Source of the DNA: an uncultured virus (IMG/VR IMGVR_UViG_3300008448_000043)
Taxonomy: Duplodnaviria > Heunggongvirae > Uroviricota > Caudoviricetes
Strand: one strand, 5' to 3'
DNA: 64,000 bases
IMG/VR virus record: IMGVR_UViG_3300008448_000043
Position numbers and translations under genes: made by a program. This document shows, in pieces, positions 1-6,694 of this stretch (positions are counted from its first letter, which is position 1; each line of letters begins with the position of its first letter). The notes beneath the pieces were generated by a model that saw nothing but the letters and a program-made list of their open reading frames with translations, was not told the origin of the DNA and made no database searches.

Positions 1-19
1 TACTTCCTTTACCACTCAT
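1..19 (-). CDS. 5' fragment of a small hypothetical protein (MSGKGS...), truncated by window edge
   Basis: GGAGG ribosome-binding site followed by ATG at 17-19 immediately after the tRNA-Cys CCA. Confidence 0.4.
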
Positions 20-28
20 ATAGCCTCC

Positions 29-106
29 TGGAGCAACGGGTCAGATTCGAACTGACGGTTTTAGAGTTTTGCAGACTCTTGCATTGGGCCTCTCTGCCAC
101 CGTTGC
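29..106 (-). tRNA. tRNA-Cys(GCA)
   Basis: Reverse complement folds to a cloverleaf: acceptor GCAACGG/CCGTTGC, anticodon arm AGAGT-CTGCAAA-ACTCT, T arm GTCAG-TTCGAAT-CTGAC, U73, encoded CCA. Confidence 0.95.
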
Positions 107-107
107 A

Positions 108-704
108 TTAACTTTTAAATGATATGTCACCACCTTCTGCCTTGATTCGTAACTTTACATCCTCAAAAGAGATTGGTGCAAAGTCAGTTTGTTCAACACA
201 TACACAGTGGTATCGAGGATCGATAACTTGCTTTTTAACATCATACGGTCTTGGATCATACGGACTAGACTCTTGCACAGTAACTGTTTTCATTACTCGG
301 TTACTATGAGTATGACCGTGAATATTTGTTCCAAATCTATAAAGGTTACTTTCATGAACTGGAATATGACTTAATATCATTCCACTCATTACATGATAAC
401 CACGAATATCTCTGAAGTAAGGTGTATAATCCTCTAGCTTAAAGATATCGTGATTACCTTTGATTAAAACCTTATCACCATTAAGCAATCCTAGTATCTT
501 TAATGCTTTCCGATTTATTACTACATCTCCAAGATGATACACCTTGTCTCTTGGTTTGACAACAGAGTTCCATTTTTCAATCATAGCTTCATCCATATCA
601 TTTGGATCATCCCATGGCCGAAGCTTGGTTCCATCGTCTCTAAGGAAACGACAAACACCAGCATGACCAAAATGGGTATCGCTAACTAAAAATATATTTG
701 CCAT
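108..704 (-). CDS. calcineurin-like metallophosphoesterase
   Basis: Motifs DTHFGH, HLGDV, GNHD, HGHTH; start moved to ATG 704 (AGGAGG RBS) because the longer ORF runs into tRNA-Ser. Confidence 0.88.
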   Translation of the reverse strand: MANIFLVSDTHFGHAGVCRFLRDDGTKLRPWDDPNDMDEAMIEKWNSVVKPRDKVYHLGDVVINRKALKILGLLNGDKVLIKGNHDIFKLEDYTPYFRDIRGYHVMSGMILSHIPVHESNLYRFGTNIHGHTHSNRVMKTVTVQESSPYDPRPYDVKKQVIDPRYHCVCVEQTDFAPISFEDVKLRIKAEGGDISFKS

Positions 705-719
705 TTCTTCCTCCTTAGT

Positions 720-809
720 TGGTGGAGAATACTGGATTCGAACCAGTGGACCCATTACTGAATCGACGGTTTAGCAAACCGCTGCCTTAAGCCTCTCAGC
801 CAATTCTCC
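720..809 (-). tRNA. tRNA-Ser(GCT)
   Basis: GGAGAAT acceptor, anticodon loop TTGCTAA, long variable arm, GGTTCGAATCC T arm, CCA end. Confidence 0.95.
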
Positions 810-881
810 ATATAAAAGTACACTAGGGTGTAGCAGCCCCACCAGGATCCCTACTGTAGTGGTTAGTGTACTTTTATATGG
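808..881 (-). repeat. 18-bp perfect inverted repeat filling the spacer between the two tRNA-Ser genes
   Basis: CCATATAAAAGTACACTA (808-825) is the exact reverse complement of TAGTGTACTTTTATATGG (864-881). Confidence 0.85.
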
Positions 882-968
882 TGGAAGCTGTGAGATTCGA
901 ACTCACGGACCGCGCAAACGATCGACGGTTTTCAAGACCGCTGCCTTAAACCACTCAGCCAAGCTTCC
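879..968 (-). tRNA. tRNA-Ser(TGA)
   Basis: GGAAGCT acceptor, anticodon loop CTTGAAA, long variable arm, GAGTTCGAATCTC T arm, CCA end. Confidence 0.95.
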
Positions 969-993
969 AATGGATCCTAATTGTTAGAGAGCT

Positions 994-1024
994 AAAAAAA
1001 AACCCGAGTCGTTTTGCTCGGGTC
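994..1024 (-). terminator. intrinsic terminator upstream of the tRNA-Ser genes (attenuator terminator)
   Basis: Minus strand GACCCGAG-CAAAACGA-CTCGGG followed by 9 T. Confidence 0.85.
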
Positions 1025-1051
1025 TTGGAATATACGGAGTATACTATGACC

Positions 1052-1141
1052 CTATGATATCTCGCTCCATGAGTCGGCGCGATATCCTGGCTTCGTAAAG
1101 CCATTAATGGAAATCTGGGGGGTTGTATGTATCTGTATCAT
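1052..1141 (-). CDS. putative 29-aa leader peptide MIQIHTTPQISINGFTKPGYRADSWSEIS
   Basis: Translated by hand; lies between a sigma70 promoter and the terminator; its stop codon overlaps the antiterminator strand. Confidence 0.6.
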   Translation of the reverse strand: MIQIHTTPQISINGFTKPGYRADSWSEIS

Positions 1142-1169
1142 TATTCCAATGGTCCTGCAAAAAAAAGTA

Positions 1170-1198
1170 ATCGTACTACTATATATAAAAAATGTCAA
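1170..1198 (-). promoter_or_regulatory. sigma70-like promoter for the leader/tRNA operon
   Basis: TTGACA-17 nt-TACGAT on the minus strand. Confidence 0.75.
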
Positions 1199-1226
1199 CG
1201 TAAATCAAACTTTTACTAAAAATATT

Positions 1227-1757
1227 TTAGTTTTTTCTTGATCTTTCAATTTCAGAATCAAGTTCTCTAAAAGCAGCCTCTCTATTCTTAGAACTTTTGC
1301 GAGCGTTGTTGAACAGCTTACGACCTTGATCTTCAGATAGCTTGAGCATTACATAAGCTCTATAACCGCCACCTTCTTTAACCACAACAAGTTTTTCACG
1401 TGTATACATTGATAGCACCTGTTCCGTAACTTGTTTAGATACTCGATCAACCTCACGTTCTACATCCTTAACCTTGGATGAACTATCTTCTATAACAGAT
1501 TCTCGAACTATTGATTCTACCTTAGTACTGATACGGTTAGCCAGTTCTACTCGTGCATTTAACATTGCTTTATCAATTGCAAACTGCATGTCCTTAGATA
1601 TATCAGTTGCAGTAACAACAACATCAGTACTGTCTTTCTGAGGCTCGGATGCAAACCAGTCTGGAACAAGACCAGTTGATTCTGGAACTTTGGTCATCTT
1701 ATTACTAGAACAAGCACCAAGAGCCACTACCAACATCATAATATAAAATTTGTTCAT
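1227..1757 (-). CDS. lipoprotein, LPP20-like
   Basis: Signal peptide with lipobox (MNKFYIMMLVVALGAC), followed by VPDWF and 'AIDKAMLNARVELA' segments typical of phage LPP20-like proteins. Confidence 0.7.
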   Translation of the reverse strand: MNKFYIMMLVVALGACSSNKMTKVPESTGLVPDWFASEPQKDSTDVVVTATDISKDMQFAIDKAMLNARVELANRISTKVESIVRESVIEDSSSKVKDVEREVDRVSKQVTEQVLSMYTREKLVVVKEGGGYRAYVMLKLSEDQGRKLFNNARKSSKNREAAFRELDSEIERSRKN

Positions 1758-1758
1758 A

Positions 1759-2424
1759 TCAATCCCAAAGATTTTCATAATATTTGCCAAACAGTTTGAA
1801 CCCATTGGTTATACGGTTCTGAACTTTCTGACGCGCTTCCCAATCACAGGTACGGTTACCTGAATTAACCATAGTATACAACTTTTCCATTTTATTTGTC
1901 AACGAATTAAGATGCTCTTCATCAGTTTCTACAAATTCAGACTTGCCCCATTCACCAGTCCAGAACTCATCGTCCCAGCTATCATTAAGTTTGCACTCGA
2001 AGGCAAATATCATTTCATCAAGTACCCAATCCCACCGCTTGAAATGGTTACCATCGATATCCCACTCATCTTCCCTAGGTGGAGCCGAAGAGCTTTTCAG
2101 TTCTTCAGGGACATCATCATCATCAACGTTAGGAGCTCCATGCTTAGTTTCCTTGAGCTGTTTTAACATCGGTAAGATGATATGAGCAAGTGTATGGTCC
2201 ATTGACCATGTATCATAATTGTCAATTCTGACGCTTATCTTTTGCTTTCTAAACTTCTCAACCCAAAGACAAGCCCTCATCAACAAAGAATAATCGTCCT
2301 TACCAGCAAGCCACTCACCAAACTTGTACACACGATCGTCTTCCCTGTCCATCCAGAACAAAATAGTTCTTGCAATCTGGAAAGGACCGACCCAATTCTT
2401 GTATGGTCCAATGTATACACGCAT
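1759..2424 (-). CDS. hypothetical phage protein
   Basis: Long ORF; likely start MRVYIGPY at 2424, coupled to the upstream stop (TAATG). Confidence 0.75.
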   Translation of the reverse strand: MRVYIGPYKNWVGPFQIARTILFWMDREDDRVYKFGEWLAGKDDYSLLMRACLWVEKFRKQKISVRIDNYDTWSMDHTLAHIILPMLKQLKETKHGAPNVDDDDVPEELKSSSAPPREDEWDIDGNHFKRWDWVLDEMIFAFECKLNDSWDDEFWTGEWGKSEFVETDEEHLNSLTNKMEKLYTMVNSGNRTCDWEARQKVQNRITNGFKLFGKYYENLWD

Positions 2425-2582
2425 TATAGATCTCCGTAAATCATCCAATCAAGGAAAAAGTATATGGCAAAGAAGCCCACAACAAACACAATTATCCACT
2501 CTGTAAACGTAAATTGTTTACGGAGTCTGTAGTGCCAGTCATATCCTAGCAGCTTCTCGTACCAACGTTCAATCACTTTCAT
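2424..2582 (-). CDS. 52-aa predicted membrane protein (not in ORF track)
   Basis: MKVIERWYEKLLGYDWHYRLRKQFTFTEWIIVFVVGFFAIYFFLDWMIYGDL; one hydrophobic segment; overlaps both neighbours and fills the gap. Confidence 0.65.
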   Translation of the reverse strand: MKVIERWYEKLLGYDWHYRLRKQFTFTEWIIVFVVGFFAIYFFLDWMIYGDL

Positions 2583-3000
2583 AATCAATCTCGTTAATCA
2601 GATCTAACTTCTGTTCATCTGTCCAGCTACGAAGATAGTCATTATCCTCGTCGAACATTCTAAGGTACTCATCCTGAGAGATTTTTCGAGCTCCAAGAAT
2701 GTTAAAGTCTATATGTTTCTGGCTAAGCTCTTTCAATGAACCATTATCCATAACAACTTCATCACATGCATGTTCCGCTTGCTTTGCACGAACTACAAAT
2801 TTGATATGGAACATGCTGATACCTTCAACAACATATAGGTCACCCTCAGCTTTAGTTAAGCTGTACGATCCATCTTTAAGATCTTTCCATTGTAATGTGT
2901 CACCAATCTTGAATCCACTACCTTCAAGTATTTCATCGTTAAGTTCAATGTAAAGTTCACCGTTCTCAGTTTCTTTAACAGGTAATGTCCAAGATTTCAT
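2569..3000 (-). CDS. hypothetical protein with AbrB/MazE-like N-terminal segment
   Basis: Start MKSWTLPVKE at 3000 after GGAG RBS; 'GELYIELNDEILEGSGFKIGDTLQW' resembles swapped-hairpin DNA-binding domains. Confidence 0.65.
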   Translation of the reverse strand: MKSWTLPVKETENGELYIELNDEILEGSGFKIGDTLQWKDLKDGSYSLTKAEGDLYVVEGISMFHIKFVVRAKQAEHACDEVVMDNGSLKELSQKHIDFNILGARKISQDEYLRMFDEDNDYLRSWTDEQKLDLINEIDYESD

Positions 3001-3014
3001 ATTATCTCCAATAG

Positions 3015-3091
3015 TGGTGGGCCGTTTGGGATTCGAACCCAATGCCGATCGATTATGAGTCGATTGCTCATACCAAATGAGCTTCCGGCCC
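3015..3091 (-). tRNA. tRNA with CAT anticodon, most likely tRNA-Ile2 (lysidine type); elongator Met not excluded
   Basis: Anticodon arm ATCGA-CTCATAA-TCGAT, T arm TTGGG-TTCGAAT-CCCAA, CCA; no initiator features; C4-G69 and C5-G68 present. Confidence 0.85.
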
Positions 3092-3687
3092 TGAATTAGT
3101 GGGAGGCTACTGTTTTCCACGCTAGCCCCTCCCTCGAGTTGTTACCCTGTCCATCCCTTTTATTCTGTTGTCTGTGTGCAGAGGGATACTGCCTATCAGA
3201 GTCTGAGGGGTTGCCTCGCTAACGGTTTTCTGCCACCGGATCTCTATCGCTAATCAAACGCTACTTTCAGGGAAGTAGTAACCGGATTCTTGCTTCTTTG
3301 ATTCTGCGAGCTGTCCTACTTAAAGCAGGCTCACACTGGTCGCCCTGAGGTGAAGCGCCTCAGTTACTCTAAATTAATATTAATGCTAACAAGGAACTGA
3401 CTGTTACATGATGTCGAAGTCATTACCGCATCAAACCCTTGCTGAACTCTCTGCAGAGACAGAACGCACATTTCTGTTTTATTTCAAAATCTTGCCAAAC
3501 AGAAACATGCTGAGTCTCCCTCACGCTATCTCAACTTTCGTGACTCCTCAATGCTAATTCTATCACACAGGGTAAGTACCTGTGTTTCCTAGCAAGGCAC
3601 ACATCACAGAGAATGTTTCTGTTTTACTATTCTGGTTATGATAACCGCTACCCAGCATGTCGTACTGGTATCACAGTTAGTTGGGTT
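3092..3687 (-). ncRNA. putative structured non-coding RNA region (one or two RNAs)
   Basis: About 600 nt with no credible ORF and at least ten hand-identified hairpins, inside a tRNA region. Confidence 0.5.
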
Positions 3688-3783
3688 ACCATATTGAAAC
3701 ACACTGCTGGATTCGAACCTTCACCCGGCATTAGGGTTACACCACCTCTCGTGCCCTTGAGGATCAGTGTGCTTCAATATGGT
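3688..3783 (-). ncRNA. long-stem element enclosing a tRNA-like T loop
   Basis: 19-bp stem 3688-3706/3765-3783 (one G-U pair on the minus strand) enclosing GGTTCGAATCC. Confidence 0.55.
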
Positions 3784-3813
3784 GCGTTGAAGTGTCGCAC
3801 CCCACTTTAATAC

Positions 3814-4128
3814 TTATACTCGAGCCAGTGCTTGATCCAGACGAGCCTTAGCTACATCTGCACCAACAAAGCGCTTGTAGTAGTAAGCGTTAGCATACGT
3901 GATGCTAAGAGTCTTTGCTACGTCCTTTGCGCTCAGACCTTGACCGTACAGGTTTACTGCCTGAGTCTTCAGATCCACGGACTTTGTCTGTGGCTTCTCT
4001 GTCGCTACTGGATCCGGATTGCGAGCCAGTTTGCGCTTGGGCTTTTTTGAGAATACATTGTTGAAAGCCTCCAGTTGCTGCTCCGGGGTATAACCTGTGT
4101 CCGGATCCACTTTAGATTTTGTTACCAT
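3814..4128 (-). CDS. small basic protein with C-terminal helix-turn-helix
   Basis: 'AVNLYGQGLSAKDVAKTLSITYANAYYY' HTH pattern; AGGAG RBS before ATG 4128; own promoter. Confidence 0.65.
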   Translation of the reverse strand: MVTKSKVDPDTGYTPEQQLEAFNNVFSKKPKRKLARNPDPVATEKPQTKSVDLKTQAVNLYGQGLSAKDVAKTLSITYANAYYYKRFVGADVAKARLDQALARV

Positions 4129-4173
4129 AATATAAACTCCTATCAATTAATCATTTAATTTAACAGCTTGATC

Positions 4174-4202
4174 ATTATCGTCAATTAACGAAATTAGGTC
4201 AA
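4174..4202 (-). promoter_or_regulatory. sigma70-like early promoter
   Basis: TTGACC-17 nt-GATAAT. Confidence 0.6.
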
Positions 4203-4207
4203 CACCT

Positions 4208-4390
4208 TTAAAACACGCATGAACTGTGGTTCATAGCAAGTCTTTTTAAAATAGTAACATCAGTTTCTGACAAAATTCCTTGTTGTTTATATAACTCTGC
4301 ATCTTTCAACGTCTGCTTCAGCATTGCTGGCTTGTGCTTGAAGCAGTTCACAGCCTTGATAAAGTTATCGCGAAGAGACTCGTTATTCAC
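4208..4390 (-). CDS. hypothetical protein
   Basis: 60-aa ORF overlapping the upstream gene, co-oriented. Confidence 0.55.
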   Translation of the reverse strand: MNNESLRDNFIKAVNCFKHKPAMLKQTLKDAELYKQQGILSETDVTILKRLAMNHSSCVF

Positions 4391-4583
4391 AATCTATCTC
4401 CTTCAACTGCTTAGCAATAGTATTTGTCATTACATAGACTGCTGTTAAGACAGCCATAGGATTGTCAGATGCTTTGGCAACCATCATTGCATACTCAAAG
4501 GCCTCCTCAATGGTTTCACGATCAGCCATCATAGGACTGTGAATAGCCTGCATGATCTCGTTCAATGTCATAGTGTCCTCCAT
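4383..4583 (-). CDS. hypothetical protein
   Basis: ORF downstream of a promoter; probable start at MTLNEI after GGAGG. Confidence 0.65.
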   Translation of the reverse strand: MEDTMTLNEIMQAIHSPMMADRETIEEAFEYAMMVAKASDNPMAVLTAVYVMTNTIAKQLKEIDCE

Positions 4584-4598
4584 TTCAAAAGAGATACC

Positions 4599-4627
4599 AC
4601 TATAACGTTTGATAAAAATTAAGTCAA
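4599..4627 (-). promoter_or_regulatory. sigma70-like early promoter
   Basis: TTGACT-17 nt-TATAGT. Confidence 0.7.
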
Positions 4628-4633
4628 CATCAA

Positions 4634-4909
4634 CTATTTCTGCGGCTTTTTAGGCATATCGTTATAGGTTCCCCATGGAAGTCTTAATGCGATGTCGACG
4701 TCATCTGGACCTCCGTTATCAATCCACATTTTTGATATGTTCAACATAATGAAGCCTTGCTCAACAACATATCTAACTTCGTATCCAGAATGGTCATATA
4801 CACCATCTGGTGCCCAAGGAAATTGCCTCCTAATGTGTCTACCGGCTGGATCAAAAGGAATCTTTTTGATCTTTCCACCAGATAGCCAGACGTGTGTTCT
4901 TTTTATCAC
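4634..4909 (-). CDS. hypothetical protein
   Basis: 91-aa ORF with GTGA overlap onto the queD stop. Confidence 0.6.
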   Translation of the reverse strand: MIKRTHVWLSGGKIKKIPFDPAGRHIRRQFPWAPDGVYDHSGYEVRYVVEQGFIMLNISKMWIDNGGPDDVDIALRLPWGTYNDMPKKPQK

Positions 4910-5406
4910 GCAAAAAGATCCTCATTCCACTCACGATGACCCTCACGGAAAGCCATGTTGCTTTGTGTCTCTCGTACTTCTACACGATAGCACCACAAAC
5001 GCTTAGCTTCACCCACACCCCAGTAGTCTGGAATATATACACCGTTCATATACTTGTACAGCTGATCAGCAAGACCTTCACAGCCAAGTTTAGGAAGAAT
5101 GGTTAGCTTGGCCATCTTCTTCTCCTGCAGAATCTTGTATGTTTCCAGCTCAGGATCATCTTCTGCAACAAGCAGGGTGTGATCAAATTGATCTTGTAGT
5201 ACTTCTTTAAGCTCTTTCAATCCACCATAATCAGCTGCCCAATTACGAACATCAAGATCATTAGTACCGAAATAAAACTTCATCGAAAAACTGTAACCAT
5301 GAATAAGGTTACAGTGCGAGTCAGCACGCCACTGACGGTATGCTACTGGAAACGCATCTACATATTCTTTCGTAGACACGTACTTATATTTAATTGGTTG
5401 ATTCAT
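4906..5406 (-). CDS. queD: 6-carboxytetrahydropterin synthase (PTPS/QueD family)
   Basis: 'HCNLIHGYS', 'DYGGLKELK', 'FDHTLL', 'CEGLA', 'VEVRET' motifs. Confidence 0.88.
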   Translation of the reverse strand: MNQPIKYKYVSTKEYVDAFPVAYRQWRADSHCNLIHGYSFSMKFYFGTNDLDVRNWAADYGGLKELKEVLQDQFDHTLLVAEDDPELETYKILQEKKMAKLTILPKLGCEGLADQLYKYMNGVYIPDYWGVGEAKRLWCYRVEVRETQSNMAFREGHREWNEDLFA

Positions 5407-5842
5407 TTTTCTCCCACCAGAAGTTAACCCACTCTTTATCTACGTTTCTATCTATTTGTCTGAACCAAAAGTCCGGAGTAACCAGATCCTGTGCTTTATT
5501 ATAAACCACACAAGCTATTTTAACATTTTTGAAAGACTCTCCAAACTTATTACGTATAGTTATGAAAGTTTCACCACTATCAACAATATCATCTATGAAA
5601 AGTATTTTACTACCTTCCCATGCATCAACAACAATGTCTGGTGGAATGTATTTTTTATGTGAATCTCTCAATGACCACTCAACAGCCCGAAAAGGAATCT
5701 GAAGACGGTGAGAAATAACAACACCAGGAACAAGCCCCCCACGAGAGATTCCAACAACATAGTCAAACTCAATCTTACTGTTTCTGACCTGTGAAACAAG
5801 GCAAGCAATTGCTTTTTGGAAATCATTGTAGTTTATATCCAT
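5390..5842 (-). CDS. type I phosphoribosyltransferase (xanthine/guanine PRT-like)
   Basis: 'VVGISRGGLVP' and PRPP-binding 'LFIDDIVDSGET'. Confidence 0.88.
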   Translation of the reverse strand: MDINYNDFQKAIACLVSQVRNSKIEFDYVVGISRGGLVPGVVISHRLQIPFRAVEWSLRDSHKKYIPPDIVVDAWEGSKILFIDDIVDSGETFITIRNKFGESFKNVKIACVVYNKAQDLVTPDFWFRQIDRNVDKEWVNFWWEKNESTN

Positions 5843-6694
5843 TTAAGTGCCCCAGGCATTTCTCCAGATGTCAACCTGAAGTCTGGGACTATATCTCCAA
5901 CCACGCTTCATAGCCATCTCTGCAACGGCTTTGTAGTTGCTGAAATAAGTTTGATCAGTACCACCAACAGGCATCAGATATACTTCACCAGCAATACCCT
6001 GTTCACGATACGCCGCTACTGCTCTATCAATTTCCTCAAGATCCGTCTCTTTGTCAACGACGAATTTAAAATAAACCTCACCATACCAAGCATACTCTGC
6101 GACTACCTTAGGAAGAATAGCTTCCTCCCACTTCTCACCTGATGGACTCAGCTTTGCACTCACAGAAAATACCACTTCTGTTTTTCCATTGAGCTTGCTT
6201 GAATACTTAGCCAGGAACTTTTTGAAATCATCTGTGAGCTGTTGTGTACCATTAGTCTCAAAAGTCAAAGACTTCAAAGGTCTCATCGTATCATTCCAAA
6301 GCAGATCTTCATACGATCTTTGCCATCCAAGAAGAGGCTCGCCACCGGTAATAATTAAGTGTTCATTCTTCCACTCTTTGTTAGGTAATAGATCTAAAAT
6401 AGAATCTACGATACTGTCAGTTCTAAGTACAGGAGAAAGATGTTTGAATCTAGGATCCCAGCTGGCATACGAATCACAACCTGTATGTACAAGAGGAAGA
6501 GAATCATAGGTCTTATATGCGTCAACATTCATAGCGATGACATCTCGCTCTTTAGAGGCACTTCCTTTTGGCATACCAAAACCACTACACATGAAGTTGC
6601 ATCCAAACGTCCGTAGAAACACACTAGGAACACCTACATACTTACCTTCACCCTGCAAGCTGTAGAACAGCTCGGCTACTTTAATTTTACTCAT
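5843..6694 (-). CDS. queE: 7-carboxy-7-deazaguanine synthase (radical SAM)
   Basis: 'ELFYSLQGEG', 'FLRTFGCN', 'ITGGEPLL', 'ETNGT', 'YLMP', 'SPRLQ'. Confidence 0.88.
   Translation of the reverse strand: MSKIKVAELFYSLQGEGKYVGVPSVFLRTFGCNFMCSGFGMPKGSASKERDVIAMNVDAYKTYDSLPLVHTGCDSYASWDPRFKHLSPVLRTDSIVDSILDLLPNKEWKNEHLIITGGEPLLGWQRSYEDLLWNDTMRPLKSLTFETNGTQQLTDDFKKFLAKYSSKLNGKTEVVFSVSAKLSPSGEKWEEAILPKVVAEYAWYGEVYFKFVVDKETDLEEIDRAVAAYREQGIAGEVYLMPVGGTDQTYFSNYKAVAEMAMKRGWRYSPRLQVDIWRNAWGT

Follow-up and report, generated by a model that had tools for sequence, protein, structure and literature searches.

In the classical attenuator model, the ribosome that terminates at the stop codon of a short leader peptide blocks the antiterminator. 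The leader-peptide attenuators of amino-acid operons (trpL, hisL, pheL, thrL, leuL and ilv) are built from a promoter, a short open reading frame (ORF), two mutually exclusive structures and a terminator located before the regulated genes (PMC1183508 and PMC3082878, each in part). The same layout is found at the head of the tRNA array of an uncultured T4-like lake phage, in a stretch of 64,000 nucleotides (hereafter, the window) of the IMG/VR virus record IMGVR_UViG_3300008448_000043. We give about an even chance to the reading that this module is a ribosome-dependent attenuator of a boxA-equipped tRNA unit, in which completed, well-coupled translation of the leader would lead to termination and a late or stalled ribosome to read-through; the state of the ribosomes probably sets how much tRNA is produced. 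In contrast to the amino-acid operon attenuators, the phage leader has no run of codons for a single amino acid, its peptides being maximally varied instead, and the genes regulated would be tRNAs, not biosynthetic enzymes. The phage module is also viral, some of its leaders (the type II group described below) appear to be leaderless, and no conserved upstream pause or anti-antiterminator helix was found in it.

Attenuators that sense ribosome stalling in general, such as the Bacillus subtilis bmrCD leader (PMC4191407, in part) and the leaders of macrolide and aminoglycoside resistance operons (PMC4335068, in part), are like the phage module in that the translation status of a short ORF picks between terminator and antiterminator. 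They respond to antibiotics and control efflux or resistance genes, and these two sources, in those parts, draw no link to tRNA genes, boxA sites or phages. By analogy, the phage module is nearer in logic to these general-stalling attenuators than to the classical ones. We know of no stalling-sensor peptide that holds all amino acids. In T-box riboswitches it is the tRNA state that sets terminator read-through; such riboswitches lack a leader ORF, recognise the tRNA by direct binding and act on synthetase and related genes, and the phage leaders give no Rfam match to the T-box. Our literature search retrieved no attenuator on tRNA genes and no phage leader-peptide example, in line with a first-pass annotation of the window, made from the sequence alone, whose author knew of none controlling phage tRNA genes. 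To our knowledge, this would be the first leader-peptide attenuator on tRNA genes. Why phages carry tRNAs is debated, with codon supply and escape from tRNA-cleaving defences as the proposed reasons (PMC10264068, in part). The timing and dosing of phage tRNA gene expression are poorly known, and with a switch that senses translation placed before the array, the decoding state of the host would be linked directly to the tRNA output of the phage.

The module in the window is made up of the following elements:

1170..1198, minus strand: sigma-70-type (T4 early-type) leader promoter, its hexamers 17 nt apart at 1198-1193 (-35) and 1175-1170 (-10) (10 of 12 positions as in the consensus, by scan)
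1153..1156, minus strand: probable ribosome-binding site (RBS), AGGA, 11 nt before the start codon
1052..1141, minus strand: leader ORF of 29 codons plus TAG (from the ORF list and its translation)
1020..1052, minus strand: hairpin competing with the terminator (candidate antiterminator), with an outer 5-bp helix (1052-1048/1024-1020) and an inner 7-bp helix (1045-1039/1035-1029)
994..1026, minus strand: intrinsic terminator, with its stem at 1026-999 and a T9 tract at 1002-994
982..992, minus strand: boxA-like block between the terminator and the first tRNA (10 of 11 positions as in the gamma-proteobacterial BoxA consensus)

The promoter, the ORF, the competing hairpin and the terminator had all been proposed in the first-pass annotation, and every coordinate and letter quoted there proved correct, each element lying where it had been placed on the minus strand, down to the last six codons of the leader and its three ATA codons. 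Five nucleotides are common to the hairpin and the terminator's 5′ arm, and the leader's stop codon lies at the hairpin's first base. Since the 3′ arm of the hairpin is the 5′ arm of the terminator, the two structures exclude each other. The interpretation given in that annotation is partly supported. Its kinship with trp/his-type attenuation stands for the geometry of promoter, ORF and exclusive structures, which is kept in relatives, but not for the codons, because the window leader contains no run of codons for one amino acid that could be regulatory. The argument that TCA, AGC and ATA are regulatory codons did not withstand codon counts, as TCA makes up 27% of the Ser codons of the phage and ATA 34% of its Ile codons. 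Of the 28 codons that follow the start, only 12 have an exactly cognate tRNA in the phage, compared to 41% of codons genome-wide (P 0.5).

In thermodynamic terms, the window hairpin (1052-1020) reaches -11.2 kcal/mol in a 44-nt context (z -2.6) and -9.8 kcal/mol alone, and the terminator (1026-999 with its T9 tract) reaches -14.2 kcal/mol (z -3.95); the hairpin is part of the minimum-energy fold only while the 3′ arm of the terminator is left out. Taken alone, the window's copy is suggestive and little more than chance. Positions 1-6000 contain 20 promoter-like sites, no enrichment over the 14.4 expected, and nine terminator-like sites (3.3 expected). Outside the module, our own detector recovered a competing upstream hairpin at 15 of 89 terminators (17%) of the fetched loci, two of the 89 also having an ORF stop inside the competing hairpin. 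Therefore, with so many unrelated terminators accompanied by a competing hairpin, a single copy can only be suggestive and the case rests on the relatives: the module stands above chance because it is conserved in them.

Relatives were sought in 330 loci (designated here by L numbers), taken around homologues of the upstream LPP20-like gene and of the phosphoesterase of the array, together with two pattern scans. The module heads tRNA arrays in 92 fetched loci, which contain 33 distinct hairpin-terminator segments (the terminator being present in all 33 by construction of the search) and 39 distinct peptides. Its order is promoter, short ORF, stop codon at or in the 5′ arm of the hairpin, terminator sharing the 3′ arm of the hairpin, boxA-like block and first tRNA. 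The stop codon is at or in the 5′ arm in every module with a called ORF, and hairpin and terminator, which share 5 nt in the window, overlap by 4-8 nt in the relatives. The hairpins have 12-21 bp, with 14 distinct outer helices in per-sequence folds, and the first tRNA (Ser, Gln or Trp) begins 7-194 nt after the module. The first-pass annotation had proposed to look before the tRNA arrays of related phages for a conserved short ORF with covarying antiterminator and terminator, and both conservation and covariation were found.

A leader of the same type as in the window is found in four loci (L003, L313, L315 and L323; alignment A4, five sequences with the window), which keep the promoter hexamers, AGGA or AAGGA, an ORF of 28-29 codons, the hairpin, the terminator and tRNA-Ser(tga); the hexamers are at the same place, and AGGA or AAGGA is present, in five of the five leaders. 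A much larger group, here called type II, displays the same layout with a different sequence before a tRNA-Gln that heads arrays of about 20 tRNAs. Type II hairpins have 19-21 bp and -20 to -26 kcal/mol, compared to -14 to -19 kcal/mol for their terminators, and in L021, of this type, the leader promoter matches the consensus at 12 of 12 positions with the ATG 6 nt after the -10 hexamer. Other module types precede tRNA-Gln in L239 and L274/L280, and tRNA-Trp in L284. The covariance model of the type II hairpin finds the modules of L239, L274, L280 and L284, but not the window type, and no convincing MAFFT alignment of the window-type peptides with those of type II was obtained. A conserved 7-9-bp stem-loop is found just upstream of the type II leader promoter (for example, L021 5128-5148). 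In L002, the terminator is kept, and the leader ORF and the two tRNA-Ser genes have been lost. This locus has an ORF of 41 codons (4563-4688) that overlaps the LPP20-like gene at its end and stops within the loop of the kept terminator. The idea that this ORF is ArfA-like found no support, as it gave only a weak DUF7230 match (E 0.006, below the cut-off).

The paired segments change in concert between these lineages. In the inner helix of the hairpin, the sequence changes and the pairing is kept in L003, L313, L315 and L323. In the terminator of L003, an A-U pair is replaced by G-C in a compensatory change, and the hairpin partner of the same segment still pairs, as G-U. The segment common to both helices differs between the window, L003, type II, L239 and L274, and both partners follow it, which is the pattern expected if both structures are used. 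When 28 distinct rows (from type II, L239 and L280) were aligned with a covariance model, 98.6% of the hairpin cells were paired, and in four of the 13 pairs both sides had changed. The score for covariation was 0.143, compared to 0.068 in shuffles (none of 500 reaching the score) and at most 0.047 in slid controls. Other candidate pairings were discarded: the one between the RBS region of the window and 1032-1025 is not kept in L003 (by eye), and one at long range in type II, between the 5′ end and the spacer that precedes the tRNA, displays no covariation.

Signs in the sequence point to translation of the leader ORF. All indels in the ORF are multiples of 3, as exemplified by L003, where a 3-nt indel keeps the frame, and frames +1 and +2 are closed in all 42 distinct leader sequences. 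The ratio of nonsynonymous to synonymous polymorphism (pN/pS) is only mildly below 1, at 0.79 for the whole ORF and 0.63 for its core, and takes values of 0.84-2.0 when the frame is shifted. Start signals differ between types. In the window, the AGGA is 11 nt before the start codon, a long spacing with which initiation may be weak; L239 and L274 have GGAG and a GTG. In type II, the ATG is located 6-10 nt after a near-perfect -10 hexamer, so close that the transcript would begin at or next to the AUG and be leaderless.

The composition of the leader peptides is unusual. Among the 39 distinct peptides, 35 contain 19 or 20 kinds of amino acid in 29-41 residues (20 kinds in 17 peptides, 19 in 18, 18 in two, 17 of the 20 in the 29 residues of the window's peptide and 16 in L284). 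Random windows of the same length from the phage's proteins contain 13.7-15.8 kinds on average, and they reach at least 19 kinds in 0.2-4% and 20 kinds in 0-0.9% of the draws. The high diversity is also found across types sharing only 20-35% of their residues. In the alignment, Cys, Gln, Val and Tyr are at different places in different variants, and three type II peptides without the usual Cys carry one near the N-terminus. A leader with nearly every kind of amino acid could act as a general sensor of decoding capacity, not of one amino acid. As a tentative possibility, with the balance leaning against it, the leader may be a universal decoding test, selected to hold (nearly) every amino acid, in which the loss or slow supply of almost any charged tRNA would allow escape from the terminator into a near-complete phage tRNA set under boxA/Nus protection. 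Such tRNA loss could come from host anticodon nucleases, from host tRNA decay during infection or from starvation. The near-complete repertoire would then suggest a design principle, one codon of each kind and not a run of one, reusable as a synthetic sensor of translation capacity, and the system, if this is true, would represent demand-driven tRNA supply by a virus. Nevertheless, several observations count against such a test. In the segment of the leader where a stalled ribosome would not cover the 5′ arm, the number of kinds (12-19, P 0.001-0.48) is raised only modestly, and most type II leaders have their Asp and Glu outside this segment. The test of diversity was made with the data already seen and with random protein windows as the null, and its P values are not independent because the leaders are related.

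In the mechanism we propose for the attenuator, the early-type promoter would start a transcript whose first part is the short translated ORF. A ribosome keeping pace with the RNA polymerase would reach the stop codon and hold the 5′ arm of the hairpin open, allowing the terminator to form and ending the transcript after about 170 nt. If the ribosome were late, stalled well upstream or absent, the hairpin would form first and tie up the base of the terminator stem, and the polymerase would read through, pass the boxA-like site, recruiting host Nus factors there as in rRNA operons, and continue into the tRNA array. Equilibrium folds with a masked ribosome behave in this way in part of the modules: in type II and L274, the terminator probability is 0.92-0.96 with a ribosome at the stop codon, and a ribosome placed 14 codons upstream lowers it to 0.01-0.08 in L024, L112 and L274, with mixed results in the others. 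Without a ribosome, the hairpin is favoured in L020 and L024 (terminator probability 0.17-0.18).

The putative boxA block invites a comparison with rRNA operons. There, a BoxA site likewise follows the promoter(s) at a short distance and precedes a long array of stable RNAs that is not translated, according to the part of PMC5725501 from which the gamma-proteobacterial consensus was taken. In contrast to the rRNA-operon leader described in that part, the phage block precedes tRNAs only and follows a leader ORF and a terminator, and its binding of NusB/NusE is putative. In the window, 25 nt separate the terminator from tRNA-Ser(tga). A perfect match to the consensus is located at the homologous place in L112, L156, L176, L214, L239, L244, L274, L282 and others. 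From its sequence, the tRNA array looks like an rRNA-operon-style Nus-protected unit, suggesting that phage tRNA arrays may borrow the rRNA antitermination system of the host. The block before the tRNAs was also considered as a T4-type late promoter and rejected, as none of the 17 coding-strand occurrences of the late motif, which precede structural genes, is near the leader.

Several of our results weigh against the attenuator, at least as the only control of the array. The first-pass annotation had proposed to fold the region with and without a ribosome mask; in these equilibrium folds, the terminator of the window has a probability of 0.96 in every ribosome state and the hairpin forms in none, the hairpin (-9.8 kcal/mol) being weaker than the terminator (-12.1 kcal/mol). 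The terminator also wins in every state in L003, L239 and L284, and any switch effect in these four modules must therefore be kinetic. The covariation alignment was fitted to the structure, which favours pairing, the per-sequence folds being independent of it. In the window, the boxA-like block departs from the consensus at one position and, taken alone, does not exceed chance (20 matches compared to 15.4 expected), and the gamma-proteobacterial consensus, as given in the part of the source mentioned above, may not be that of the host. Purifying selection on the leader peptide is weak. The ORF core is near-invariant, third codon positions included, while its flanks vary (type II alignment A1, columns 56-118; window-type alignment A4, columns 131-161), a pattern explained by neither the sensor idea nor simple selection on the peptide, for which a pause site or a further contact with RNA or protein is possible. 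Finally, a separate promoter after the terminator, which the first-pass annotation had itself named as a contrary sign, is present in some modules and not in others. No consensus promoter was found between terminator and tRNA in the window (where the scan gave no sigma-70-like site), L003, L284 and type II (by scan for some and otherwise by eye), whereas one or two strong sigma-70-like promoters lie there, before the boxA, in L156, L239, L255, L274, L282 and L304. Therefore, the module cannot be the only gate in those six loci, where it may be a separate small gene.

These downstream promoters are consistent with a self-contained early mini-gene cassette of the kind found in the variable regions of T4-like phages, whose peptide or terminated short RNA would act in trans, the tRNAs being expressed by leaky read-through and from other promoters and the hairpin serving RNA stability or RNase III processing. 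By the size rule for RNase III, the window hairpin (12 bp, with internal loops) is too short and the 19-21 bp of the type II hairpins are long enough, leaving the latter open to cutting. A cassette would also fit the strongly conserved core of the peptide and its nucleotides, and L002, with its terminator and neither leader ORF nor tRNA-Ser genes. Upstream of the type II leaders, the stem-loop and the consensus promoter are like the PeSL motifs of T4-like phages, which combine a stem-loop, a near-consensus sigma-70 promoter and a small ORF (PMC4122927, in part), and similar terminator-then-promoter pairs are present in L239, L255, L274, L282 and L304. In that description, PeSLs are recombination and expression cassettes with the order stem-loop, promoter, RBS and start; the type II leaders have no RBS, and the available part of the text describes no competition between hairpin and terminator, no tie to tRNA arrays and no particular peptide composition. 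The cassette leaves unexplained why hairpin and terminator overlap by 4-8 nt in every lineage, with both partners covarying, why the 5′ arm always has the stop codon at or inside it, why the module remains beside the first tRNA while both its neighbours change, and why 19-20 kinds of amino acid recur at movable positions; moreover, the peptides match no protein family. We consider it rather doubtful, and the other two alternatives bear on the sign of the response and on the ORF itself. Across 14 module types, 22-32 nt separate the stop codon from the terminator, and in Escherichia coli a ribosome at the stop codon hinders the terminator at spacers below ~27 nt (PMC4824070, in part); so close to this threshold, the sign of control may be reversed or mixed. 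In a switch of the opposite sign, as in pyrBI, where it is likewise the distance between ribosome and terminator that decides, a ribosome at the stop would sterically hinder the terminator, good translation would give read-through and the tRNA output would follow translational capacity. The terminator of the window, which forms in equilibrium folds whenever it is unblocked, would suit this scheme. However, pyrBI as described in that source has no competing hairpin and responds to UTP-dependent pausing, and the scheme has no role for the conserved covarying hairpin of the phage module, whose 5′ arm a terminating ribosome would open. In addition, the spacer is at least 27 nt in half of the types, and the ribosome-free folds of L020 and L024 already favour the hairpin, making the opposite sign unlikely in our view. 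More unlikely still is a non-coding structured RNA, such as a small RNA or a signal for processing or stability of the tRNA precursor, with an incidental ORF. The near-invariant nucleotides of the ORF core, the weak pN/pS signal, the fold of the whole window leader (better than its shuffles, z -2.95) and type II transcripts beginning at an ATG without RBS would agree with it, but indels occur only in frame, the ORF is uninterrupted in every module, with the other two frames closed, start and stop are at fixed places relative to promoter and hairpin, the RBS is conserved in the window-type and L239/L274-type leaders, and Rfam searches at E up to 1 or 0.1 give no family.

In database searches, the leader DNA has no close or distant match in 50,697 phage records, the matches being confined to the tRNA parts, and the module is in none of the cultured relatives searched. 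An exact 15-mer scan of viral contigs returned 26 chance matches and one true relative, 17 of the 20 matches of a metagenome scan were chance, four DNA sequencing runs contained only sequence variants of the stretch, and no RNA run containing it was found among the sequencing runs listed. At the protein level, the leader peptides match no Pfam or PHROG family, the ESM Atlas gave no usable match and tblastn with two of the peptides gave chance-level matches only; a set of 5.8 billion proteins contains two near-identical entries. In Rfam searches (E up to 1 or 0.1), only tRNAs match, together with chance-level matches on tRNAs, and none lies in the leaders of the window, L003, L021 and L274.

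The virus record is 162 kb long with terminal repeats, and its tail sheath, 58% identical to that of Stenotrophomonas phage DLP_6, is of a T4-like myovirus; by this protein, the nearest cultured relatives are DLP_6 and Caulobacter phage Cr30. DLP_6 has an array of 36 tRNAs preceded by a tmRNA-like tag region and a 56-codon ORF, without terminator, and Cr30 has five scattered tRNAs. After the terminator, the window continues in the order claimed by the first-pass annotation:

879..968, minus strand: tRNA-Ser(tga), the first gene of the array (tRNA call)
720..809, minus strand: tRNA-Ser(gct) (tRNA call)
108..704, minus strand: calcineurin-like metallophosphoesterase inside the tRNA array (phrog_547, E 1e-48; Pfam Metallophos_2, E 7e-5, below the curated cut-off)
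29..106, minus strand: tRNA-Cys(gca) (tRNA call), with the array continuing beyond the window start

With 20 more tRNA genes just outside the window start, the stretch heads an array of 23 tRNAs. The same genome has one further tRNA 1.9 kb upstream of the array and a tmRNA gene, and phosphoesterase homologues are inside the tRNA arrays of most of 80 fetched loci. The tmRNA gene is permuted (L106 6176-6544), as also observed in relatives (for example, L066 and L259), and the tag region of DLP_6 (L310 520-760, by eye) lies just upstream of its tRNA array.

Between the two tRNA-Ser genes, the 69-nt spacer (810-878, minus strand) is closed by a perfect 16-bp inverted repeat, possibly a processing site; weak Rfam microRNA matches in this spacer are due to its inverted-repeat hairpin. 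Further upstream, 722 nt (3092-3813, minus strand) contain no ORF of at least 60 amino acids and directly precede tRNA-Met(cat). This region folds at -224.6, compared to -202.6 in shuffles (z -3.3), is matched neither in Rfam (E up to 10) nor, by blastn, in the phage records, and resembles GC-richer stretches before the first tRNAs of L233 and L257 (by eye). It is a candidate for a large structured RNA adjoining tRNA genes. Its position is reminiscent of the GOLLD and ROOL RNAs, whose models give no match. Lastly, an unusually long tRNA with anticodon TAT, labelled Ile by ARAGORN, is found in the same genome (L102 379-473), and similar long TAT tRNAs (89-95 nt over all cases) are present in L239, L243, L254, L255, L302 and L304, usually directly after tRNA-Ser(gct); their length suggests a long variable arm or an intron.

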